This document shows positions 2,650 through 14,390 of a DNA stretch of 64,000 bases, piece by piece. A model generated the notes under the pieces. The model was not told where the DNA came from. It worked only from the letters and a program-made list of their open reading frames with translations, and made no database searches. Source of the DNA: Candidatus Heimdallarchaeota archaeon (GTDB taxonomy: Archaea; Asgardarchaeota; Heimdallarchaeia; Heimdallarchaeales; Heimdallarchaeaceae); NCBI GenBank assembly GCA_016840095.1, contig JAEOSZ010000024.1, positions 1 through 64,000 of the forward strand, given 5' to 3'. The translations under genes and the position numbers were made by a program. Every line of letters begins with the position of its first letter. The first letter of the stretch is position 1.

Positions 2650-4059
2650 CTAAACAATCTTTGTTAACAGAGGATTTCTTTTCAAAGCTAATTCAGTTGC
2701 TTTGTTAACAAAACTTGCAGGAAATCCTGAATGCTCAAGCAAATTCTTGAACAAAACTTCAGCTTGCTCCTTATCATATAATGAAAACGAAGTAATAATA
2801 TATGACATTGAAACGAGTTTTCTTAATTCATTGAAAACTACAACGGATGCCTTCTCTAGTTGTTGATCTTTCTGTTTTTCGATAATTGATACAAAATGAT
2901 TACTTGTTTTAAATCCTTTAATATCCCCATCTATTAGGTTGATTATTGTTGCTTCTTTTACGAATTTTCCTTTAGATTTTAACTTCTCAAATTGAGATAG
3001 AGACATCCCATAAATGCCTGTATTAAGTATCTGATTATCACCTATAATGTCAAAATCTTCATCCGCCCATTGGATTATCTCTGAAACGATATGTTGATTG
3101 AATATTGATAATGTATCAATAACCAATCTTGTAGTCAGTTTATCCCCAATTACTAATACAGTTTCATTTACAATAACAGGATAGAGAATAGATTCAAGTT
3201 TGCCATCAACTGCATTATTGAGAAAAGCTAATGAAAGATCTTCAACTTCAACAGATGAAAAATAATTTCCAGAATCCTCAATGTTTTGAATTATGTCCAG
3301 AATTTCAAGCATTTCAAACTGAGAATCTTGCTCTGCTAGAATTTTGATTTTTTCAGAAATTAGTGGAAATATTCTAAACGCAATGTAATCAAGTTCTCTA
3401 GGAAACTTCAGAATGCCTAATATTGCTTGAGCTCCTTTTGAATCAATAACAACTAGTGCAGAGTGTTTTTTCTCTGGTGCTAGAAGAAGAATGCAAGCTA
3501 GCTTTTCCTGAAATTCTTGATTTAAATCATACTTCTGTAACATATTCAAAATTTCTACAGCATCCTCCTTTTTACCAACTGTTTCAATTATTTCGAAGTC
3601 AGATTCATCAAATCTGATAATACTAAAAATAAGAGGTTCAGCATCTCTTAGTGGATTCTTTGCAAAGAAAAGTGGAAGGTTGTAGATATCATGAAGTATG
3701 TGTTCCAAAATTAATTCAGCTTCACCTTCAGTGAGTAGATTTTCATCTTTCTCAAAGAGCATAGGTTCAGCACTCAAACGAATCTGTTCCATAATTTGTG
3801 TAAGCTGTTTATCTGAGAAGAGAGTCTCTTCAACTCTTGTTTCTATAATGAATATAAAATCTAAAACTTGCACAAATGAGATGTTTTTATCATGATAAGA
3901 TATAGATTGAAGTTCTTGTCTATGAACTTCTTTAGCAAAAGTAATGATGGCACTAATGAGACTTGTAGCAAGTATTTGCTGTGTTTCTGCATAAACCTCT
4001 GGTTTTGAAGCCAACAAGATTCCTGAAGAAGTTACCAAAGAAATTTGTAAGCTTCGCAT
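2650..4059 (-). CDS. Longin + DENN-like domain protein (paralogue A)
   Basis: N-terminal longin pattern (SGILLAS...LISAIITFAKEV...ELQSISYHDKNISFV). C-terminal ILYPVIVNETVLVIGDKLTTRLVIDTLSIF resembles the cDENN core. Clear paralogue of 4913-6310. Confidence 0.6.
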   Translation of the reverse strand: MRSLQISLVTSSGILLASKPEVYAETQQILATSLISAIITFAKEVHRQELQSISYHDKNISFVQVLDFIFIIETRVEETLFSDKQLTQIMEQIRLSAEPMLFEKDENLLTEGEAELILEHILHDIYNLPLFFAKNPLRDAEPLIFSIIRFDESDFEIIETVGKKEDAVEILNMLQKYDLNQEFQEKLACILLLAPEKKHSALVVIDSKGAQAILGILKFPRELDYIAFRIFPLISEKIKILAEQDSQFEMLEILDIIQNIEDSGNYFSSVEVEDLSLAFLNNAVDGKLESILYPVIVNETVLVIGDKLTTRLVIDTLSIFNQHIVSEIIQWADEDFDIIGDNQILNTGIYGMSLSQFEKLKSKGKFVKEATIINLIDGDIKGFKTSNHFVSIIEKQKDQQLEKASVVVFNELRKLVSMSYIITSFSLYDKEQAEVLFKNLLEHSGFPASFVNKATELALKRNPLLTKIV

Positions 4060-4912: not shown

Positions 4913-6310
4913 CTAAACCAAGTAATCAATTAAAGGATTTATGTTTACTGCAAGTACAACAGCTTTCTTAAAGAAACTAGCTACATTGCCGCTTGCCGAT
5001 GAAAGACCCTTAAGTTTACTTTTGGCTTTTTCTTTATCAAAAAGAGCTAAAGAAGTTAATTCGAGACTTAGATTTACTAGTTTCTCTAAATCGTGTACGA
5101 TTTTGGTTACAACTTCAGCTATCGAAAGACGTTTGACCGTATCAAATAGTTTTTTGAAATGTGTGCTTGAATTTTCTCCATTCACTCTACTAGCTTCAAG
5201 ATTAATATTGGTTTCAGATGTGGATATTTGACCATCTTCTAACAGTTTGTTATATAATGAGGACGACATTCCACATAGTCTTGCATGTAACACACATTTA
5301 CCATTTTTTGACATGTCTTCTTCATTTATCCAAGGATTAACAGAAGTTTGTAAATGTTGAGTAAAAATGGATAACGAGTCAATAACTAATTTGACTGTAG
5401 GTTTATCTCCCACAATATAAATTGGTTCTCCAACAATTGCTGAATATATGGCTTTTTCAAAATTCTTACTGATTGTTCTATCCAAAAATGTAGGAGAGAG
5501 ATCTTCTAAATTCAATTTTGATAATCTATTACCTGGATCATCGAGTTCAATTAGACCATTAAGAATTTCCTGCATGTTTTTATCTTTTCCGAGATTCTCT
5601 AGTTCATTATTCAGAAGATTGTGAAGTCTAAACAATACTAGATTCATACTTTGAGGGAACTTTAAAACACCGACTTTGGATACATTTCCTAAAGATTCTA
5701 CAACAGTATATGCAATGCTTTTCTCATCTTCAAGAGAGGTTAGTAACCCACCAATTTTATCTTTATATCTTTCATTTGCCTTTAGATTATCTAACATCAG
5801 AGCAATCATTGGAATATGTGATCCTGAACCTACTTTGTCTTTTATTTCCCAGCCTTTATCTGAATGAATAATTGTGAAGTAAGAAATATCTGCAGTTTTC
5901 AATGGTTGTTCTGAAATGGATAGATTCAGAAGTTGTATATCTTGAAGACACCTATCTAGGATTATTGAAGCTTCACCTTCTGTTATAGCATTAGGATCAG
6001 CTCCATCCAAAAGAGGACCTGTACATGCTTTTAATTTTTCCAACAATTGATTCAAAAATTGCTCTGTTAAATTAGATTCTTCATCTATGGTTTCAAGTAT
6101 AAGAACAAAATCATGAACTCGAATAAAAGAAACTGTTCTGTCGTGATAAGATATCGATTGTAATTCTCTGTGATGTACCTCTTTTGAAAAAGAAATTAAA
6201 GCTGTCATTAAACCAGTAGCTAGAATCTGTCTTGTGTCGTCTACAGCTTCAGGTTTTGAAGCTAGTAGTATTCCAGTTGATGTTACAAGAGATATCTTAA
6301 TGTTTAGCAT
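4913..6310 (-). CDS. Longin + DENN-like domain protein (paralogue B)
   Basis: Longin pattern TGILLAS...LATGLMTALISFSKEV...ELQSISYHDRTVSFI; AIYSAIVGEPIYIVGDKPTVKLVIDSLSIF cDENN-like segment. Confidence 0.6.
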   Translation of the reverse strand: MLNIKISLVTSTGILLASKPEAVDDTRQILATGLMTALISFSKEVHHRELQSISYHDRTVSFIRVHDFVLILETIDEESNLTEQFLNQLLEKLKACTGPLLDGADPNAITEGEASIILDRCLQDIQLLNLSISEQPLKTADISYFTIIHSDKGWEIKDKVGSGSHIPMIALMLDNLKANERYKDKIGGLLTSLEDEKSIAYTVVESLGNVSKVGVLKFPQSMNLVLFRLHNLLNNELENLGKDKNMQEILNGLIELDDPGNRLSKLNLEDLSPTFLDRTISKNFEKAIYSAIVGEPIYIVGDKPTVKLVIDSLSIFTQHLQTSVNPWINEEDMSKNGKCVLHARLCGMSSSLYNKLLEDGQISTSETNINLEASRVNGENSSTHFKKLFDTVKRLSIAEVVTKIVHDLEKLVNLSLELTSLALFDKEKAKSKLKGLSSASGNVASFFKKAVVLAVNINPLIDYLV

Positions 6311-6391: not shown

Positions 6392-7249
6392 TTATCTCCT
6401 CTTCTCTTGATTTCTCTTATCTCTGATGATATCTAGAACTTCTGGTGTAATTGTTGAATATCCCATTTCTTTTGCTTGTTCGACTATTTGAGTCATAGCT
6501 CTTTTTAGAAATACTCTGGGTATAGCTACAATTCTCTCACAAGCTTCATCTGTCCAGAATACTTCAGGATCAAGTCTATCAGCTTGATATCTTACAGTAT
6601 CTATGTCAACACCTTTTCCTTTAGGTAGAGGTTCTTTATATGGTGCTTTATGTTCAGCGAACCAGAAATATTGATTATCTCTGTAACCATAATCTATTGG
6701 CAAACTTGGAAACTTTCCGTCTCCATTGACTAAAGACTTATACCAGTTAGGTTTTATCAAAATCTTATCAATTCTTAACAAGTAATGAGATTCGTCTTCT
6801 CTTCCTTTGTATCTAAAAATATCTTCATTGTCATCCCAAGTACAGACTATAGATTGAATAGATTCACCAATAATTGGAGGAACAACACCGTTCTCCTCAC
6901 CATCTACAGGTATTAAAGTAAAGATGCTATCATCAAGTTTCTCTTCTGCTGTTTGTCCTGGAAATCCTAAACGAACGGTATTTTTTAGAATCTTTTTGTT
7001 ATAAGGTATGAAATTTAGTACAGCCTTTTTGGTTCTCTGTATATTCATTGATGTATTACTGTCAACTCGAGATATAAGCATCATAGCATGTTTATCTGCT
7101 ATTCCAAACGGAAAAACTAGTGAGTACGGACCTATGTTTACTGCTCCAGATTCAGAATAAGTTGTTACTAATACAACTGGCATTGGATAAAAGGACGAGG
7201 TTTGATAGAAATTATCTAACACTCGTATTTCTTCGAATTTGTGTTTCAT
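6392..7249 (-). CDS. Flavin reductase-like (DIM6/NTAB) protein fused to a C-terminal PCP_red-like domain
   Basis: PMPVVLVTT...NIGPYS flavin-reductase motif; C-terminal WTDEACERIVAIPRVFLKRAM...AKEMGYSTITPEVL matches the PCP_red helical domain pattern. Confidence 0.75.
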   Translation of the reverse strand: MKHKFEEIRVLDNFYQTSSFYPMPVVLVTTYSESGAVNIGPYSLVFPFGIADKHAMMLISRVDSNTSMNIQRTKKAVLNFIPYNKKILKNTVRLGFPGQTAEEKLDDSIFTLIPVDGEENGVVPPIIGESIQSIVCTWDDNEDIFRYKGREDESHYLLRIDKILIKPNWYKSLVNGDGKFPSLPIDYGYRDNQYFWFAEHKAPYKEPLPKGKGVDIDTVRYQADRLDPEVFWTDEACERIVAIPRVFLKRAMTQIVEQAKEMGYSTITPEVLDIIRDKRNQEKRR

Positions 7250-7254
7250 TATTT

Positions 7255-8118
7255 TCAGCTCTTAGCTATTTGTTGGTATTGTATCTCAAACCAAGATCTT
7301 TTTCGTATCATCTTCCTGAACCATGTTGGCATTATCCATCCTAAGTACATTAGAACATAAGCACCAGCAAAAGATAGGGCTCTTAATGCTGCAATAGTCA
7401 TCATCAAGGCAGGAATAGTTGCTAATTGTGCATCAAATGCAGATAACATTCCTCCAAGCAAATATAATATTGTTCCAAGCCCAATTGTTTGTAGTCCTCT
7501 TTTTCTTACTGGTTGATCAGATTTTCTGGATAATCTCCATGCTCTCCAACCAATTCTTCCTGTAACATAGATTGAAACAATTATCTGTACTAATTGAATA
7601 ACTAAGTAATAGGATACAGTAAATAGTTGAGGTGTAATACTAACTGCCTCTGAAAAGAACAGAGGATTAACATATAAGTCATCTAGCAACAACGAGTATA
7701 CTGGTGAAGATGCAAAAACATCGTACCCAACAAGTGCAGTTGCCATTCCAAAGAAGAACATTAAGAAAGCAAAAATGAAAATCCTAACAATCTCATTATC
7801 TTTCAAAATGTGTCTGCAAGCAAAAATATAGAGAAAGCCAAAAGCAGGAAGAAGCATCAATGGTCCTAATGCTGCAAGCAAATAAGTTAACTCATTAATT
7901 ACTGCTCCATTAAAAATGAATGATATCCTATATGCAATACTTACTGCTGAAGTCGCTGAAAAGAAGATATAGGCAAAAAGGAGCATGAAAGTTCCAATAG
8001 TTCTTTTCCTAAAGAAATTGACTAGTAAGAAAATCACCAAAGTAAAACTGAATAAGAAATTGATTATTGATGTAATCATGAGAAAATAAGTTGAAGTATC
8101 TAAAACTGGAATAGCCAC
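7255..8118 (-). CDS. Seven-transmembrane protein, receptor-like, no fused output domain
   Basis: Seven hydrophobic segments; basic loop between TM5 and TM6 (RLSRKSDQPVRKRG); C-terminal YLGWIMPTWFRK amphipathic tail. GTG start 5 nt after the GTPase stop, with GGTGA SD overlapping that stop. Confidence 0.7.
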   Translation of the reverse strand: MAIPVLDTSTYFLMITSIINFLFSFTLVIFLLVNFFRKRTIGTFMLLFAYIFFSATSAVSIAYRISFIFNGAVINELTYLLAALGPLMLLPAFGFLYIFACRHILKDNEIVRIFIFAFLMFFFGMATALVGYDVFASSPVYSLLLDDLYVNPLFFSEAVSITPQLFTVSYYLVIQLVQIIVSIYVTGRIGWRAWRLSRKSDQPVRKRGLQTIGLGTILYLLGGMLSAFDAQLATIPALMMTIAALRALSFAGAYVLMYLGWIMPTWFRKMIRKRSWFEIQYQQIAKS

Positions 8119-8123
8119 TTATT

Positions 8124-8651
8124 TCACCCCATGAACTCTTCTACAAACCATTTGAAAGCGTCAAAAATCCCTTCTCCTGTCTTTGCAGATGTTTCGAAAA
8201 CTGCCCATTTAAATGGCAAATCTAGTAAGTTGAATTCTTCAATAAACTGAGTTTTTTCAATAACATCAGTAACATCACTTTTGTTAAGCAGTACTAAGAT
8301 ATTAAGCTCGTTTCCAAGCTGTGCACTTACTGTTTGTTGAAAGACATTTTTAGCTTCTTCGAATCTCATTGCATTGGATCTATCAACTACAAATACTATT
8401 CCATCAGATTTCTCATTTATGCTATGCCACATATTTCGGAAATCTTCCTGACCAGCTAAATCAAATACATTGATTTGTAGATTAGGTAAATGCAAAGTTT
8501 CTCTGTTAACACCCATAGTAGGTGTTGTTTCTACGAATTCTCCTGTTTCCAAGTATCGTAATATTGTTGTTTTTCCAGCATCATCTAAACCACATATGGT
8601 TATATCAGCATGCTTGGATTTGCTTTTGAATAAGTTACGTAAGAATGACAT
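8124..8651 (-). CDS. Arf-related small GTPase (Asgard ArfR-like)
   Basis: G1 GLDDAGKTT, G2 TTPTMG, G3 FDLAGQ followed by FRNMW, G4 NKSD, G5 SAK; N-terminal amphipathic MSFLRNLF. Confidence 0.9.
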   Translation of the reverse strand: MSFLRNLFKSKSKHADITICGLDDAGKTTILRYLETGEFVETTPTMGVNRETLHLPNLQINVFDLAGQEDFRNMWHSINEKSDGIVFVVDRSNAMRFEEAKNVFQQTVSAQLGNELNILVLLNKSDVTDVIEKTQFIEEFNLLDLPFKWAVFETSAKTGEGIFDAFKWFVEEFMG

Positions 8652-8663
8652 CTCTTTCCCTCA

Positions 8664-9158
8664 TTAATCCCATAAGTCATCAGATAATTTTTCAATAGCA
8701 TTTCCATTTGGATCTTGACTCTGTTTTGGAAAATCAAATGTTATGGTTGAAGTCGAAGTAATTTCAATTTTGAAAGTACCTTTATTGAAGCCTTTGTATA
8801 GTTTCGGTAAAATCTCTTGAAGTGTTCCTGTTGAGAGAAGGTCTTTCTTCTCTAACTCTGTTATCACCCAAGAAAACACCTGCTTTATGGCGTTTGAGTC
8901 ATAATTGGTAGAGTCGAATACAGCTACTAAAGAGGCTAGATTATCTCTTTGCTCTGCAGAAGGAATTCTAAAGATGTAGCTAGTAAGATTCAGATTGTTG
9001 AAAGTTGTTGAAGCAAAATCCCCAGGACTTGATCCCATAGGAATGGTTTTGTAAACTAGCTGATTCATCGAATCAGCTGGTATGACATCGGGAAAAGTTT
9101 TGACTAATTCTAATCCCCTAGTGCCCATATTGATTAGACATAAACTTAACGGTTTCAT
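8664..9158 (-). CDS. Stand-alone uDENN/longin-like protein, putative regulator of the adjacent GTPase
   Basis: Likely start ATG 9158 (GGGG SD) rather than 9254. The segments GLELVKTFP and YIFRIPSAEQRDNLASLVAVFD recall NPRL2/FLCN/SMCR8 longin domains. Stop is 12 nt before the GTPase start. Confidence 0.55.
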   Translation of the reverse strand: MKPLSLCLINMGTRGLELVKTFPDVIPADSMNQLVYKTIPMGSSPGDFASTTFNNLNLTSYIFRIPSAEQRDNLASLVAVFDSTNYDSNAIKQVFSWVITELEKKDLLSTGTLQEILPKLYKGFNKGTFKIEITSTSTITFDFPKQSQDPNGNAIEKLSDDLWD

Positions 9159-9438: not shown

Positions 9439-10812
9439 TCACCCTGAAATTGTATGATTCATGAAAGTCATAGTCGGAGCATCTAGTGGATATCCTGATC
9501 TTTCTCTATCAGAACCAATTTCTTTGATTTCCATTAGAGTTTTCTTATGGTTTCCTGCAATACTTACTGCTTTCAATGGATGTGCTATCTCTCCGTTTAA
9601 GATCAGAAAAGAGTTAGTTGAAGAAACACTGAAATCCCCAGTAATTGGATTTTCGGTACCAAGACCAATGGGTGTATCTGTTACTAGTATTCCTTTCTCT
9701 AATTCTTCGATTTGCTCATCTAGGTTTTTACCTACGTTTTCGATAACCAGCTGATTCAGTCCTGAAATTGGGATGCTTTCAAAAGGAATTCCTCCAGGAG
9801 CTTGTCTCTGAGCATTACCTGTAGATTTTCCTCCTGCTGCTTGACCATACATTCTGTTAAACAAGAAAGATTTTAGAACTCCATTTTCTATCACAGTTGT
9901 TTTTCCTTTTGGTGTTCCTTCAGAATCTATTTTATGTGTACTGAAATGTTCAGGATTGACTGCATCATCAATCAGATTAAAATCTTTAATAGCTATCTGC
10001 TCATCTAATTTATCAATCCAAGGATTCCTCTTTTCTACATATGTTGTACCTGAAGTTCCTATCATAAATGGAAAGAACAGAAATGCAGCAGCAATACGAT
10101 TTTCCCAGATAGTTGGTAGTACTTCACTTCCCTCAAAAGCTTTTGAACCCAATCCAGCTATTGCTTTATCATATCCAAGTTTACCTATACTGCTAATATC
10201 GGGTATTTTTCTACCAGATTCTCCTTGACTGCCAGTTTTTCGATCTCCATCACCCATAGCAACTACATATGAGAATGCAGTATAGCCTGTAGCTAAAGTA
10301 GCAGCTAAACAACCTTCAGTAGTACCTACTGCATAACCAACAGAATTACGGTTAGCACCAACATAAGTTGATACAATTCGAGTATCCTCTCTATCAATTT
10401 GCTTAGAAATTTCATCACAATGTTCAGAAAGAGCAGTTGCATCTAGATTTAGAATTTCAGGATCAAGAATCCCTTCTTTTGAATATTCTCCACCTGTCGC
10501 AAAACCCATAAACATAGGATTTTCAGGACTCACTTTCGCCATGGTGTAAGCTTTACTTAAGGCATCTTTTATAGAATCATCTGCAAACCCAGTACAACTA
10601 GAGAAACCTAACTTTTTCCCATCTGCAACTTGTATTCCTACTCCTTGAACAACACCATCTCTGCTATCAATTTTGCCATTGTTATCAGACACATTTGTCA
10701 AAGCTTGATTATAGACATATACCTCAGCAGAAGGTATGCCAAGATCTCTAGAGAACTTAAGTGCAGAATCTGCAACTTGTAAAATTTTATCGCGTAAATC
10801 CTCAAATGACAT
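9439..10812 (-). CDS. pmbA: TldE/PmbA family protein
   Basis: DSEG, IENGVL, STGNA and NPITGDFS motifs; no HExxxH; 1-nt overlap with tldD. Confidence 0.88.
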   Translation of the reverse strand: MSFEDLRDKILQVADSALKFSRDLGIPSAEVYVYNQALTNVSDNNGKIDSRDGVVQGVGIQVADGKKLGFSSCTGFADDSIKDALSKAYTMAKVSPENPMFMGFATGGEYSKEGILDPEILNLDATALSEHCDEISKQIDREDTRIVSTYVGANRNSVGYAVGTTEGCLAATLATGYTAFSYVVAMGDGDRKTGSQGESGRKIPDISSIGKLGYDKAIAGLGSKAFEGSEVLPTIWENRIAAAFLFFPFMIGTSGTTYVEKRNPWIDKLDEQIAIKDFNLIDDAVNPEHFSTHKIDSEGTPKGKTTVIENGVLKSFLFNRMYGQAAGGKSTGNAQRQAPGGIPFESIPISGLNQLVIENVGKNLDEQIEELEKGILVTDTPIGLGTENPITGDFSVSSTNSFLILNGEIAHPLKAVSIAGNHKKTLMEIKEIGSDRERSGYPLDAPTMTFMNHTISG

Positions 10813-12230
10813 TATTGAGCACCTCCAACTTGAACTTGATCCATAATCACCTCAGGACCACCAGTTCCAACAGGAAGGGGAAATTGTCCACCTTTGCCAC
10901 AACCACCAAAATAGTTTCCACGTAGTTGAATATTCTTTGTTGTACCTTCTACATATTTTAATAATTCAAGTATGTTTCCTGAAAGTGCAGTTGTTTTGAA
11001 TGGTTTTGTCAGTTCCCCATTTTCAATTAGATATCCTCTGTTACAGTTAAACATGAAATTACCATCCATTGTGACTTGTCCTCCAGACCAACTTACAGCA
11101 TAGATACCATTGTCAACTAACTCGATTGCTTCTTCCAAAGTTAAATCTCCTTTCTCAAAATACGTATTCTTCATCCTAGGAATGGGATTGTACATGAAGT
11201 TAATTCCTACACTGTTACCAGTTGTTTCAGCATTTAGCTTATTAGCAGTCCCTCTGTCATGTAGGTAACCTTTCAAAATGCCTTTTTCAACTAATACAGT
11301 TCTAGAAGTTTTAGTTCCTTGATCGTCATAAGGGAAATACCATCCTCCATAAGGTGTTATTCCTTCATCAATTATTGTTACATGCTCACTTCCTAACTCC
11401 TCACCAACTCTATCAGCAATTGGAGACATTCCTGAAACTACAAAATCTCCTTCAGATAAGTGGCCAAAAGATTCATGAACCACCACACCTCCCATACTAG
11501 GTGAAACTAGAGTTTTCACTTTTCCAGTAGGTGCATTTACAGCATCTAAAAGTTCTTTTGTCCATTTTCCAGCATTAGCTCCAACATTCTCAGGTGTCCA
11601 TCTCTCTTTATCGAAGAACTCTAATCCCATTGATTGTCCCATACCATCTGAAGCTGTAGCTTGTTTTCCATTCTCCATTACAACAGCATTTAATCTCATA
11701 TCCACAACCATAGGAGTCCAGAAAATCTCAGAACCATCTGAGTTTACAAAATATTTCTCACCATAAAATTCACCATATTGAGCTTGGGTACTACTAGCAT
11801 CAACATTTTCTTTAACTGCGGCTACACCTCGTTTCAGTAATTCTAGTTTATCGGTAAATTCGAAATCCTTTGGATGTTTCTTAACTTGTAAAATAGCTTT
11901 ATCCTTTATAGCAGGTCTCTTATCAAATTCTAATTTCATCTTGTTTCTAGGTTCTGTTGAAACAGCGAGTTTCACTGCACCTTGAGTAGCTTTTTTTACA
12001 GCATCAACTATTAATTCAGGAGTAAAAGAAAAACCAGGAGTACCTTTGTAATAAGCCATAACTCCTATTCCTCTTCTTCTTTTTGATGAAGATTCTTTTA
12101 CGATATCATTTGTCAAGTTTATACTTGTTAACTGATAATCATCATATCTAGCATCAATGAAGACTCCATCTGTTTTCTCACCTTCTTCTACAGCTTTTTG
12201 TAGAAGATCAAAAATAAATTCTTCACTCAT
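10812..12230 (-). CDS. tldD: TldD family metalloprotease
   Basis: HESFGHLSEGD zinc motif, YDDQG, RMKNTY, CGKGGQ.PVG.GGP C-terminal motif. Confidence 0.93.
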   Translation of the reverse strand: MSEEFIFDLLQKAVEEGEKTDGVFIDARYDDYQLTSINLTNDIVKESSSKRRRGIGVMAYYKGTPGFSFTPELIVDAVKKATQGAVKLAVSTEPRNKMKLEFDKRPAIKDKAILQVKKHPKDFEFTDKLELLKRGVAAVKENVDASSTQAQYGEFYGEKYFVNSDGSEIFWTPMVVDMRLNAVVMENGKQATASDGMGQSMGLEFFDKERWTPENVGANAGKWTKELLDAVNAPTGKVKTLVSPSMGGVVVHESFGHLSEGDFVVSGMSPIADRVGEELGSEHVTIIDEGITPYGGWYFPYDDQGTKTSRTVLVEKGILKGYLHDRGTANKLNAETTGNSVGINFMYNPIPRMKNTYFEKGDLTLEEAIELVDNGIYAVSWSGGQVTMDGNFMFNCNRGYLIENGELTKPFKTTALSGNILELLKYVEGTTKNIQLRGNYFGGCGKGGQFPLPVGTGGPEVIMDQVQVGGAQ

Positions 12231-12342: not shown

Positions 12343-13329
12343 TTGAATGGCTATTTGCATGTGTTACAAAGTAAAAGTTCAAAAATCAACAATTTCTCCT
12401 TTTTATATCTGGCGGGGTTGCTAGTGAGTACTCAAACCGATTTATATAAAGAAACAATCACATATCAATGTAATAGTTGTGGAAAGAAAAGACTTGCTTT
12501 AATACCTCCAACTATGACCGTTAAATGTGATTCAAGAGGATTGTGTGAGTTTGTTGATGTGCATGTTTGTAAAGATGAAGAGTTGACTGCAAACATCTTA
12601 TTCATAGACACAAACAGAGCAGTTCGTTCTCAAGTTCCTGTTAGTAAAACTGAGCAATCTTCAACTGAAGGATTCGCTATACCAATGCCTTCAAAGACTG
12701 AGCATGCAACTTATCCAATAGTTCCTGAAGAGAACTATAGAGGTAAGGTTATTCGTGAACTTGAAGTAAAAGATGATTTTAGAAATCTGATTTACGTTCT
12801 AAAATCAGATAAAGCTCTAGACAAGATAAATTCAGAAGCTACTTCTAAGTTGGGTTTTATCTCAATTCAAGCAAATCTATCTCGAAATACTACAGACGAA
12901 AAGGCTAGTAAATGGTTGCAGAAATTAGCAGATCTACTAGAGAAAACTGCAAATCTAGATGAAGATATTTTTTCATACTTAGTTTATTTTCTTGATCACA
13001 AAATGTTAGAAGAACTCAATAATCAAAATTCTGCTGAGCTCGACATAATACTACAGTCTACAGTCTCAGTACCTACTGCAAATGAAGATGTTCTCAACGT
13101 CTATAATGAATTAAGAAAAACTATTTTCAAAGATTTGAACATTGTCGATAATATATTCTATACTAATTTGTTGAAATCTTGTATCAAAAATGACAACTTA
13201 ACAATATTAGGAGTTTACAATAGTATGGAACAAAAACTTCCACTATTCCTATATTTGGATGCTATATATAATTTAGAGAAGAACAATCTTATAGAAATAG
13301 AAAAAGTAGAGTTCTTAACAGTTGATTAA
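12343..13329 (+). CDS. Hypothetical protein with N-terminal zinc-binding domain (start may be GTG 12424)
   Basis: CNSC...C...GLC...HVC...ILFIDTNRAVRSQ; possible winged-helix C-terminus. Confidence 0.6.
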   Translation: MNGYLHVLQSKSSKINNFSFLYLAGLLVSTQTDLYKETITYQCNSCGKKRLALIPPTMTVKCDSRGLCEFVDVHVCKDEELTANILFIDTNRAVRSQVPVSKTEQSSTEGFAIPMPSKTEHATYPIVPEENYRGKVIRELEVKDDFRNLIYVLKSDKALDKINSEATSKLGFISIQANLSRNTTDEKASKWLQKLADLLEKTANLDEDIFSYLVYFLDHKMLEELNNQNSAELDIILQSTVSVPTANEDVLNVYNELRKTIFKDLNIVDNIFYTNLLKSCIKNDNLTILGVYNSMEQKLPLFLYLDAIYNLEKNNLIEIEKVEFLTVD

Positions 13330-13337
13330 GAGCTTGA

Positions 13338-14390
13338 TTATTTCTCTTGCTTTAATTTCCTTAGCCATAGAAATTGATCAGATTTGCAATTTGGACATTT
13401 AGAATCTGTTTCTAGCCAAGCAATAATATGGTCTTTGTGAGTATAAACATCGCAACAAGGTGTTTGTACTACAATCTTTTTCTCAGATGGTTTTAAGTCC
13501 AAAAGGCAAACTATACAGATTGGTCTGGGAGATTTACAGCTAGTACAAATGTCTTCAGTTGTTTCAAACGGATCCCCACATTGGTAACAAACGAGTTCTT
13601 CTACTGCAACATCACCAAAGTCCTTTAACATTACGACATCATGTATTAAGTTTGAAAGTTGAAATAAACTAAGTAGTACTTCGGAACTATTGATTGTACC
13701 ATTTATGAAACGTCCATTGAATGAGATTAATTCTAAGTTTTCTTTCATCTCAACCAATAACTCATCAACCTGTTTCTTCTTCAATATTTCCTCATATAAT
13801 ATTGGGTGGTTTGAGAAAAAAGAGTAATAGTTTGAAGACTGAATTTCAGACAATATTTCACCAGAATCTTTCTTGATCATCACTTTCTTAATACTCAAAG
13901 ATATTGGATATTCAAACCTGAGAACTGCTCTTAAGATTATTTCTTCAGATGACTGTACTTCAAGAGAAACTTGATTTAAGAATGCAAATACATTTTCTTC
14001 ATTAAACCCGAAAATGACTCTAGGAAATAAATCATCAGTAATTCTGATATTAACAGCTTCAATAGTTGTAAGAATTGGGTTGAGTTTCTCTTCAATGAAC
14101 TTGATTTTCTCATTTACTAAATCATCTTTTCTTAAAGCTAATACCTTATAGATTCTAGAAGGAGAACCTCTATTTCGTCTTCGTTTAATCCACCAAAAAA
14201 GCTGTATTAAAATGTAGCTAGCAATTAAAGAAGCCAATATTAAAACTGTCAACATATAACCAATCAATTTTTGATGATCAAAATCATAAGAAGCAAAATA
14301 CAAACCAGTAATATAACCAGCAATAAGAAGAAGTAATCCAAAAGTCTTGAAAACTCCTTTCAACCCACTCCTATAGCTTGACCTGATCAT
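13338..14390 (-). CDS. Membrane-anchored zinc-ribbon + RING-finger protein (putative E3 ligase)
   Basis: Two N-terminal TM helices; CYQC..CTSC ribbon, then CIVC-x16-CC-x4-H-x2-H-x3-W-x6-CPNC. Confidence 0.75.
   Translation of the reverse strand: MIRSSYRSGLKGVFKTFGLLLLIAGYITGLYFASYDFDHQKLIGYMLTVLILASLIASYILIQLFWWIKRRRNRGSPSRIYKVLALRKDDLVNEKIKFIEEKLNPILTTIEAVNIRITDDLFPRVIFGFNEENVFAFLNQVSLEVQSSEEIILRAVLRFEYPISLSIKKVMIKKDSGEILSEIQSSNYYSFFSNHPILYEEILKKKQVDELLVEMKENLELISFNGRFINGTINSSEVLLSLFQLSNLIHDVVMLKDFGDVAVEELVCYQCGDPFETTEDICTSCKSPRPICIVCLLDLKPSEKKIVVQTPCCDVYTHKDHIIAWLETDSKCPNCKSDQFLWLRKLKQEK

Follow-up and report, generated by a model that had tools for sequence, protein, structure and literature searches.

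A conserved longin-Arf-7TM gene cassette in Heimdallarchaeia and a proposed mechanism for receptor-coupled control of an Arf-related GTPase

The gene at 7255 to 8118 of a 64,000-nucleotide stretch of a Candidatus Heimdallarchaeota archaeon (the window; contig JAEOSZ010000024.1) encodes a stand-alone seven-transmembrane (7TM) protein and is the third gene of a cassette, behind genes for an NPRL2-like longin and an Arf-related (ArfR) GTPase. This cassette is a real, conserved and apparently unpublished module, a putative case of receptor-coupled small-GTPase control, for which we propose a mechanism. The linkage of the genes, the folds of the products, the pattern of conservation, and the correlation of a longin C-terminal tail with the 7TM family are established by our analysis. 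As for how the module works, we give about an even chance to a model in which this tail serves to dock the longin on the 7TM protein and the longin, as a GAP-type protein, controls the Arf, with receptor control of the GTPase being indirect. The features of the cassette and its downstream neighbors, in the order in which they would be transcribed, are the following.

8664 to 9158, minus strand: NPRL2-like longin protein, 164 aa, with its ATG at 9158 (from the model, fold matches and alignment; no Pfam match)
8124 to 8651, minus strand: ArfR GTPase, 175 aa (Pfam Arf, 6e-42; PDB match, alignments and tree)
8119 to 8130, minus strand: Shine-Dalgarno (SD)-like GGGGTGA that includes the GTPase stop codon, 5 nt ahead of the 7TM GTG start
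7255 to 8118, minus strand: stand-alone 7TM protein, 287 aa, predicted N-out/C-in, GTG start (AF2 model, charge pattern and alignments)
6392 to 7249, minus strand: flavin-reductase-like protein with a PCP_red-like C terminus, 5 nt downstream of the 7TM gene (Pfam)
4913 to 6310, minus strand: longin-DENN/FLCN-like protein, 465 aa (Pfam Intu_longin_1, 0.0011)
2650 to 4059, minus strand: longin-DENN-like paralog, 469 aa (phmmer 2e-44 to the N-terminal part of 4913 to 6310; longin HMM match)

The start of the 7TM frame agrees with an alignment in which close homologs have their initial Met at this position, and the genes of the run are closely packed, the gaps from longin through Arf, 7TM and flavin-reductase-like gene to longin-DENN gene being 12, 5, 5 and 81 nt. 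At the GTPase/7TM junction the letters read GGGGTGA-AATAA-GTG. The SD that a sequence-only reading had placed across the GTPase stop is indeed there, with the stop codon inside GGTGA and the 5-nt gap behind it. Homologous loci have Arf-7TM gaps of about -1 to 8 nt and do not all keep the SD/stop overlap; tight gene packing is conserved and the exact overlap is not. The spacing suggests that translation of the 7TM protein is coupled to that of the GTPase. A scan of sigma-70 promoters and terminators, a model that does not apply to archaea, stayed at chance level, and an RNA run search listed no RNA holder. A GGATCACCTCC match on contig C143 did not have the look of a 16S end and was discarded.

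The genes downstream of the 7TM gene are less constant. The flavin-reductase-like gene is present in most same-genus loci and absent in L006, in the other family that carries the cassette, and at the same place in G023; we rejected it as a core cassette part since it is missing in L006 and in that other family. Longin-DENN-like genes accompany the cassette in the host's family only. By Atlas features, 4913 to 6310 scores 0.84 to a Heimdallarchaeota cluster in which 23% of members carry Folliculin, a value that serves as a lead only. Its product is possibly a second longin subunit, and that of 2650 to 4059 is also a candidate partner. Upstream of the cassette, on the same strand, lies a TldD/TldE (PmbA) pair with a 1-nt overlap (9439-12230). 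The window also encodes a 328-aa protein (12343-13329) that has a zinc-ribbon-like CxxC motif in its N-terminal part and matches no Pfam family, and a protein with two TM segments, a zinc ribbon and, at its C terminus, a RING domain (13338-14390; Pfam zf-RING_2, 7e-6), possibly a membrane E3 ligase.

The AF2 model of the 7TM protein (pLDDT 86, pTM 0.81) has seven membrane helices, with TM3 split at P86, a beta-hairpin (156-170) in the long TM4-TM5 loop, extended TM5 and TM6, helix 8 at 265-272, and a further, ninth helix at 276-286. The seven hydrophobic helices, long TM4-TM5 loop and helix-8-like tail expected from the sequence are thus all present in the model. Across 36 homologs, K+R averages 2.9, 2.7, 7.1 and 6.5 in loops 1, 3, 5 and the C-terminal tail, and 0.2, 0.6, 1.1 and 0.2 in the N terminus and loops 2, 4 and 6. 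This positive-inside bias indicates that the protein is N-out/C-in, so that both the strongly basic TM5-TM6 loop and the predicted GPCR-like topology of the earlier reading stand. TM7 of the query contains no Lys, as had been noted of the retinal position, and has R246 instead; among the 36 homologs, 31 have Arg at position 246 and 5 have Lys. The frame ends at 287 aa with no fused output, in keeping with the reported lack of a kinase or cyclase domain. Among the best 150 representatives of the family all are at most 398 aa, and a search for longer relatives, a weak one, found none; the longer representatives P0105, P0112 and P0148 have a partial TM repeat or low-complexity tails and no known domain.

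Sequence searches place the 7TM protein in no named family. Pfam gave no family above cut-off in any of 33 members, the 7TM profile found no chain among PDB sequences at E<=10, and NCBIfam gave nothing above cut-off, the match to the MAB_1171c 'putative transporter' family (E 6e-5) being far below it. In structure, GPCRs or GPCR-like designs made up 49 of the top 50 matches in a wide fold search, with a best Z of 15.6 (rmsd 4.0); the remaining match, in 50th place, was a microbial rhodopsin (Z 13.2). Comparison with GPCRs gave a VIA Z of 13-15.7, with an rmsd of about 4 Å over about 235 residues, and Foldseek TM values of 0.45-0.54, and thus the GPCR-like fold proposed earlier is upheld at the level of the model, whose helix packing matches GPCRs with Z of about 15. 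Because microbial rhodopsins score almost as high (Z 13.2-14.2), however, the fold does not assign the protein to a lineage. The nearest predicted structures in the Atlas were unnamed archaeal 7TM proteins and a HisKA_7TM cluster, so called from PF16927 in 28% of its members (TM 0.57 by query and 0.81 by target, rmsd 2.6 over 186 residues). The suggested kinship to HisKA_7TM sensors therefore holds in structure but not by profile, as PF16927 matched 0 of 33 members; nor was PF16927 found in the host genome. The marks of the GPCR classes are missing as well: no 7tm Pfam family matched the 33 members, DRY and NPxxY are absent, and a TM3-ECL2 disulfide is precluded by a single Cys. A microbial rhodopsin identity was ruled out by the lack of a TM7 retinal lysine. 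By the tests applied, then, the protein is not a member of the GPCRs, rhodopsins or HisKA_7TM. As modeled, it is a member of the broad 7TM fold whose shape is closer to prokaryotic sensor modules than to GPCRs, and the fold itself shows neither descent nor function.

Another reading makes the 7TM protein a transporter, a scramblase or an enzyme of the membrane, under regulation by the longin/Arf pair. The MAB_1171c match and the buried charges of the protein would suit this, and there is a precedent in PQLC2, a transporter that recruits the C9orf72-SMCR8 Arf GAP complex (PMC12290439). We regard it as highly doubtful, however, because the top 50 wide fold matches include no transporter or enzyme fold and the outer side of the protein has no conserved catalytic motif.

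The conserved surface of the 7TM protein is its cytoplasmic side. Conserved motifs there are KxTxGT in ICL1, RHILxD at the end of TM3 and in ICL2, the basic ICL3, YxGWIxP from TM7 into helix 8, and W276. Column conservation over the 36 homologs is 0.69 for ICL1, 0.65 for ICL2 and 0.66 for helix 8 vs 0.24, 0.23 and 0.30 for ECL1 to ECL3, and the extracellular loops are variable. Within the membrane, the clade that carries the cassette fixes R/K246 (36/36) and D/E133 (30/36), and outgroup members of the family fix D229 (47/48) and W247 (42/48). These subfamily-specific polar residues fixed within the membrane favor a ligand pocket, and the predicted fold together with the variability of the loops suggests a role in sensing. 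A conserved cytoplasmic face with short, variable outer loops would also be seen if the 7TM protein were a constitutive membrane dock, or a cargo, at which Arf-GTP and the longin come together as an adaptor, as Arf1 does with the longin-containing AP and COPI subunits, with information flowing from the Arf to the membrane protein. The polar residues just described fit ligand pockets and argue against such a dock, as does the presence of up to about eight diverged copies per genome, which fits a repertoire of receptors. Taken jointly, the dock and cargo versions of this alternative seem to us improbable.

The ArfR GTPase has intact G1 to G5 motifs (GLDDAGKT, T45, DLAGQ, NKSD and SAK), and 8OUN is its closest PDB match (E 7.5e-31). 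Pfam scores it at 143 bits for Arf and 41 bits for G-alpha, the latter below the cut-off of 48.8. Its N-terminal amphipathic helix is conserved as MSFLxxLF, with F3 and F8 invariant and a hydrophobic moment of 1.3. The sequence INEKSD after switch II is of a cassette type and differs from 8OUN, and the cassette Arfs group together in the tree, though with weak support (SH-aLRT 67). G-alpha proteins engage GPCRs through a conserved C-terminal extension. The C terminus of ArfR is short and variable and has no conserved extension of the G-alpha type, and the protein has no helical domain; the partner of the 7TM protein is not a heterotrimeric G-alpha. The intrinsic GTPase activity of a purified Asgard Arf was very low, and its native regulators were stated to be unidentified (PMC11914678).

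The upstream longin, which the sequence-only reading had left out, offers a candidate for such a regulator. Its best fold matches are NPRL2/Npr2, with a VIA Z of 15.5 and an rmsd of 3.1 over 151 residues to 8fw5_B of GATOR1 and a Foldseek match to GATOR1 chains of 7e-8; a search of its profile against PDB sequences gave no relevant match. The R71-x-N73 loop is conserved, and alignment and model place R71, which is kept in at least 90% of sequences, in the beta4-beta5 loop. R71 is a candidate for an arginine finger equivalent to that of NPRL2. The fold also matches AP sigma/mu subunits (Z about 9.5), and the GP motif before beta2 that marks GAP longins (PMC12290439) is altered, since G15 is kept and is followed by Leu in cassette longins, giving GL. 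Both features would suit the adaptor alternative, although NPRL2 is a far better fold match than the adaptins. The altered motif also counts against the GAP model that we prefer, as does the retention of R71 in cassettes that have no Arf, so that this residue may have a structural role or work in trans. The GAP-like longins of Asgard archaea have clients that are stated to be unknown (PMC12290439). The longin GAPs known to date are heterodimers; no second longin is encoded within the f7 cassettes, and the lack of a universal heterodimer partner is a further point against the GAP model. Elsewhere, several non-cassette longin paralogs have the GP motif. NPRL2-like longins with an intact GP motif and an RDT loop and with no tail occur at G000 C36:43852-44307 and at L102-L104 and L106, where they converge on a gene for a 605-640-aa six-TM protein, and these GP-bearing, tail-less longins look like better textbook GAP candidates than the cassette longin.

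In two Heimdallarchaeia families the order longin-Arf-7TM recurs and has undergone duplication as a block, with up to about eight diverged copies per genome in the second. Homologs are named Ca. Heimdallarchaeaceae or Heimdallarchaeota, and one second-family locus lies on the JABLTI01 record, which we take to be Gerdarchaeales. In a quick SH-aLRT tree of 84 7TM sequences, 36 form a clade with an SH-aLRT of 99. An Arf gene stands upstream of the 7TM gene in 28 of these 36 clade loci, at identities down to about 20%, and is absent from 8, whereas the NPRL2-like longin is retained in 36/36, including all 8 that have no Arf; because the loci are kin, such counts overstate their independence. Within the clade there were at least two losses of the Arf, and stops interrupt three further copies. 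In the host's family, 9 of 31 genomes have a cassette 7TM, and precisely these 9 have a cassette-type Arf. Solo Arfs of the cassette type exist in the second family and could serve Arf-less cassettes in trans; at L118 and L122, solo cassette-type Arf genes, one of them broken, adjoin 324-347-aa multi-TM proteins from outside the 7TM family. Purifying selection acts on both the Arf and the 7TM gene (pN 0.05 vs pS 0.42, and 0.07 vs 0.16). The divergence of Arf and 7TM covaries across paralogs (rho 0.72 for 120 pairs within family f7, which are not independent), as block duplication would be expected to give.

If the 7TM protein were a GPCR-like GEF, it would when activated bind ArfR directly and catalyze GDP release, with the longin serving as the off-switch. 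The GPCR-type fold, extended basic TM5-TM6 region and helix 8 suit this, and the Arf-linked clade has its own specific features in R102, D107, R188, W276 and helix 9, these four residues being absent from NPRL2-longin loci outside it. That the cassette Arfs may form their own group with a specific INEKSD surface points the same way, and where an operon has a GAP, a GEF is required. The clade motifs have a single origin, however, and therefore their correlation with the Arf counts as one event; moreover, RHILxD of ICL2 survives in all 8 Arf-less loci. The repeated loss or decay of the Arf and its short, variable C terminus also weigh against direct coupling. Differences at K38, R192 and L31 between Arf-positive and Arf-less cassettes were not counted, there being only about two losses behind them. 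Outside the clade, a GTPase was found in none of 43 wider-family loci within the fetched 1.5-2.5 kb. Consequently, we consider direct exchange activity distinctly unlikely.

The wider family, which a profile search found in 174 of 400 genomes of the phylum, points instead to the longin. A longin-like neighbor is present in 36 of 43 outgroup loci, as a 137-162-aa Fuz/sybindin-like protein (by weak Pfam matches) or an NPRL2-like one. The cassette longin has a C-terminal helix that ends in DDLWD, and a C-terminal helix with D/E-x-[LF]-W or a close variant occurs in 35/36 clade longins and 36/36 outgroup longins, even though hhalign gives no alignment between the bodies of the two longins (probability 4.5). 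The background is low, with the tail in 28 of 3433 ORFs of the host genome (0.8%). At loci of NPRL2-like longins that have no family 7TM, the tail is absent in 17 of 18 informative cases. In three outgroup loci the tail is carried by non-longin proteins directly upstream of a family 7TM and ending in [LI]W (L092:733-2469, L077:1011-2447 and L093:1348-2199), one of them an alpha/beta-hydrolase. Presence on unrelated proteins is also what a generic docking tag would show, in line with the dock alternative. Overall, a tail-bearing soluble neighbor occurs in 35/36 clade and 39/43 outgroup loci, and because of these counts we regard a tail-bearing soluble protein as the constant partner of the 7TM protein. 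The Arf is a later addition in one clade.

Several other arrangements were seen. In the host genome, family 7TM genes at C103:1483-2672 and C126:18950-20133 lie directly behind genes for 148-149-aa longin-like proteins that end in DSFW, with no GTPase, and a third such longin (C13:20152-20604) ends in GFW and has no 7TM neighbor. This C13 longin and one at L099 are the two tail-bearing longins that have no adjoining family 7TM. The host also encodes three 365-380-aa 7TM-longin fusions with a C-terminal longin-like domain (C11:9312-10451, C119:13257-14354 and C95:57952-59094), whose 7TM part belongs to a different family with no detectable homology to the cassette 7TM. At L045, L067, L068, L087 and L019, a tailed NPRL2-like longin is followed by a 212-216-aa multi-TM protein in the place of the Arf, which does not align to the 7TM profile, and by an outgroup-type 7TM. 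Tandem pairs of family 7TMs behind one longin gene (L046, L048, L081, L083 and L088) make heterodimers possible. The cultured Ca. Lokiarchaeum ossiferum (CP104013; L152 / L091) has a distant 7TM member with no adjoining longin or GTPase.

The sequence-only reading had taken the neighboring G protein as the output of the 7TM protein. Linkage to a GTPase is conserved, in 28 of 36 clade loci, and none of the results that this reading had named as refuting it (a topology other than 7TM, a transporter or enzyme fold, or no association with GTPases) was obtained, but a role of the GTPase as the direct output is not supported: the longin is in every clade locus, persists after Arf loss and carries the tail found throughout the family, most wider-family 7TMs have no GTPase nearby, and the Arf C terminus is not of a conserved docking type. 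In the model that we prefer, the 7TM protein would be the membrane component of a three-part switch with the longin and ArfR. Its cytoplasmic cavity, formed by ICL1, ICL3 and helix 8, would bind the C-terminal D-x-[LF]-W helix of the longin. The longin, with R71 as arginine finger, would act as a GAP-type regulator of ArfR, which in its GTP-bound form would use an amphipathic helix of its own to reach the membrane. Binding of a ligand or membrane cue in an outer or intramembrane pocket (R246, D/E133) would then alter whether the longin is held or released and, through this, local Arf-GTP. In a ternary complex, a further contact to the Arf may come from ICL2 (RHILxD) and helix 9, both of which are specific to the clade. 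By analogy, such a mode of action would resemble a split 7TM-RGS or LYCHOS-GATOR1 rather than a GEF-type GPCR. In complex predictions of Arf, longin and 7TM, the 7TM protein scored 0.30, 0.33 and 0.28 against a mark of 0.32, values that we count neither for nor against the model. A stronger version, in which a receptor of GPCR fold senses a signal, takes up the C-terminal helix of its transducer as GPCRs take up alpha5 of G-alpha, and so switches the Arf, is in our judgment unlikely; if true, it would be a prokaryotic forerunner or parallel of GPCR/G-protein coupling in the lineage closest to eukaryotes.

Comparison with known systems sets the cassette apart from each of them. It shares with GPCRs and heterotrimeric G proteins an N-out/C-in 7TM fold, helix 8, a basic ICL3, the lack of a fused output, a GTPase partner and possibly docking of the partner's C-terminal helix, but its 7TM protein lacks sequence homology, DRY, NPxxY and the TM3-ECL2 disulfide, its GTPase is a 175-aa Arf type, and its conserved tail is on the longin and not on the GTPase. 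HisKA_7TM (PF16927) is the closest named structural neighbor and has the same topology; the cassette 7TM, in contrast, has no Pfam match in 33 members and no fused kinase, GGDEF or HTH, its output being on separate genes. Functionally, the cassette is most likely closest, by analogy, to LYCHOS-GATOR1, PQLC2 with the C9orf72-SMCR8 Arf GAP, or the plant 7TM-RGS. LYCHOS/GPR155-GATOR1 (PMC11525196) and PQLC2 with C9orf72-SMCR8-WDR41 (PMC12290439) are lysosomal and use large heterodimeric GAP complexes, whereas the cassette joins, within an archaeal operon, a single small longin with an Arf and a bare 7TM, with no homology to LYCHOS shown. In plant AtRGS1 (PMC3386157), as may be the case here, a 7TM protein controls a G protein via a GAP and not as a GEF, but its RGS is fused and acts on a self-activating G-alpha, whereas the GAP candidate of the cassette is a separate longin with an Arf as target.

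Among Asgard systems, the cassette GTPase is an ArfR (AArf) with 8OUN as its best PDB match, although its subfamily differs after switch II, and term searches of the ArfR papers turned up no mention of operons, neighbors or membrane partners (10.1101/2024.02.28.582541; PMC11914678). The cassette longin resembles the GAP-type longins described from Asgard archaea (PMC12290439). The Asgard roadblock-Rab-like GTPase-DENN operon (10.1101/2020.10.19.343400) is likewise a conserved operon of a small GTPase with longin/roadblock-fold regulators, but it has no membrane protein, uses another GTPase family, and has DENN/roadblock rather than NPRL2-like regulators. ArfR, Asgard GAP-like longins and GPCR-like Asgard clusters are thus each known singly, and no paper that describes the cassette or the tail came up in our literature search. 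Because a 2026 preprint attributes 7TM proteins among ESP families to Eme 2023 or Liu 2021, the family of the cassette 7TM may itself stand in their supplements.

Which GEFs, GAPs and membrane partners natively serve Asgard Arf GTPases has been named as an open question (PMC11914678), for which the cassette gives candidates in the form of three small proteins that belong together and lend themselves to purification and assay. From the tail pattern it is predicted that a 10-15-residue peptide docks soluble partners on the whole family of Asgard stand-alone 7TM proteins. If sensing is confirmed, the archaeal relatives of eukaryotes would have receptor control of small GTPases via longin GAPs and perhaps also the docking of a C-terminal helix on a GPCR fold.
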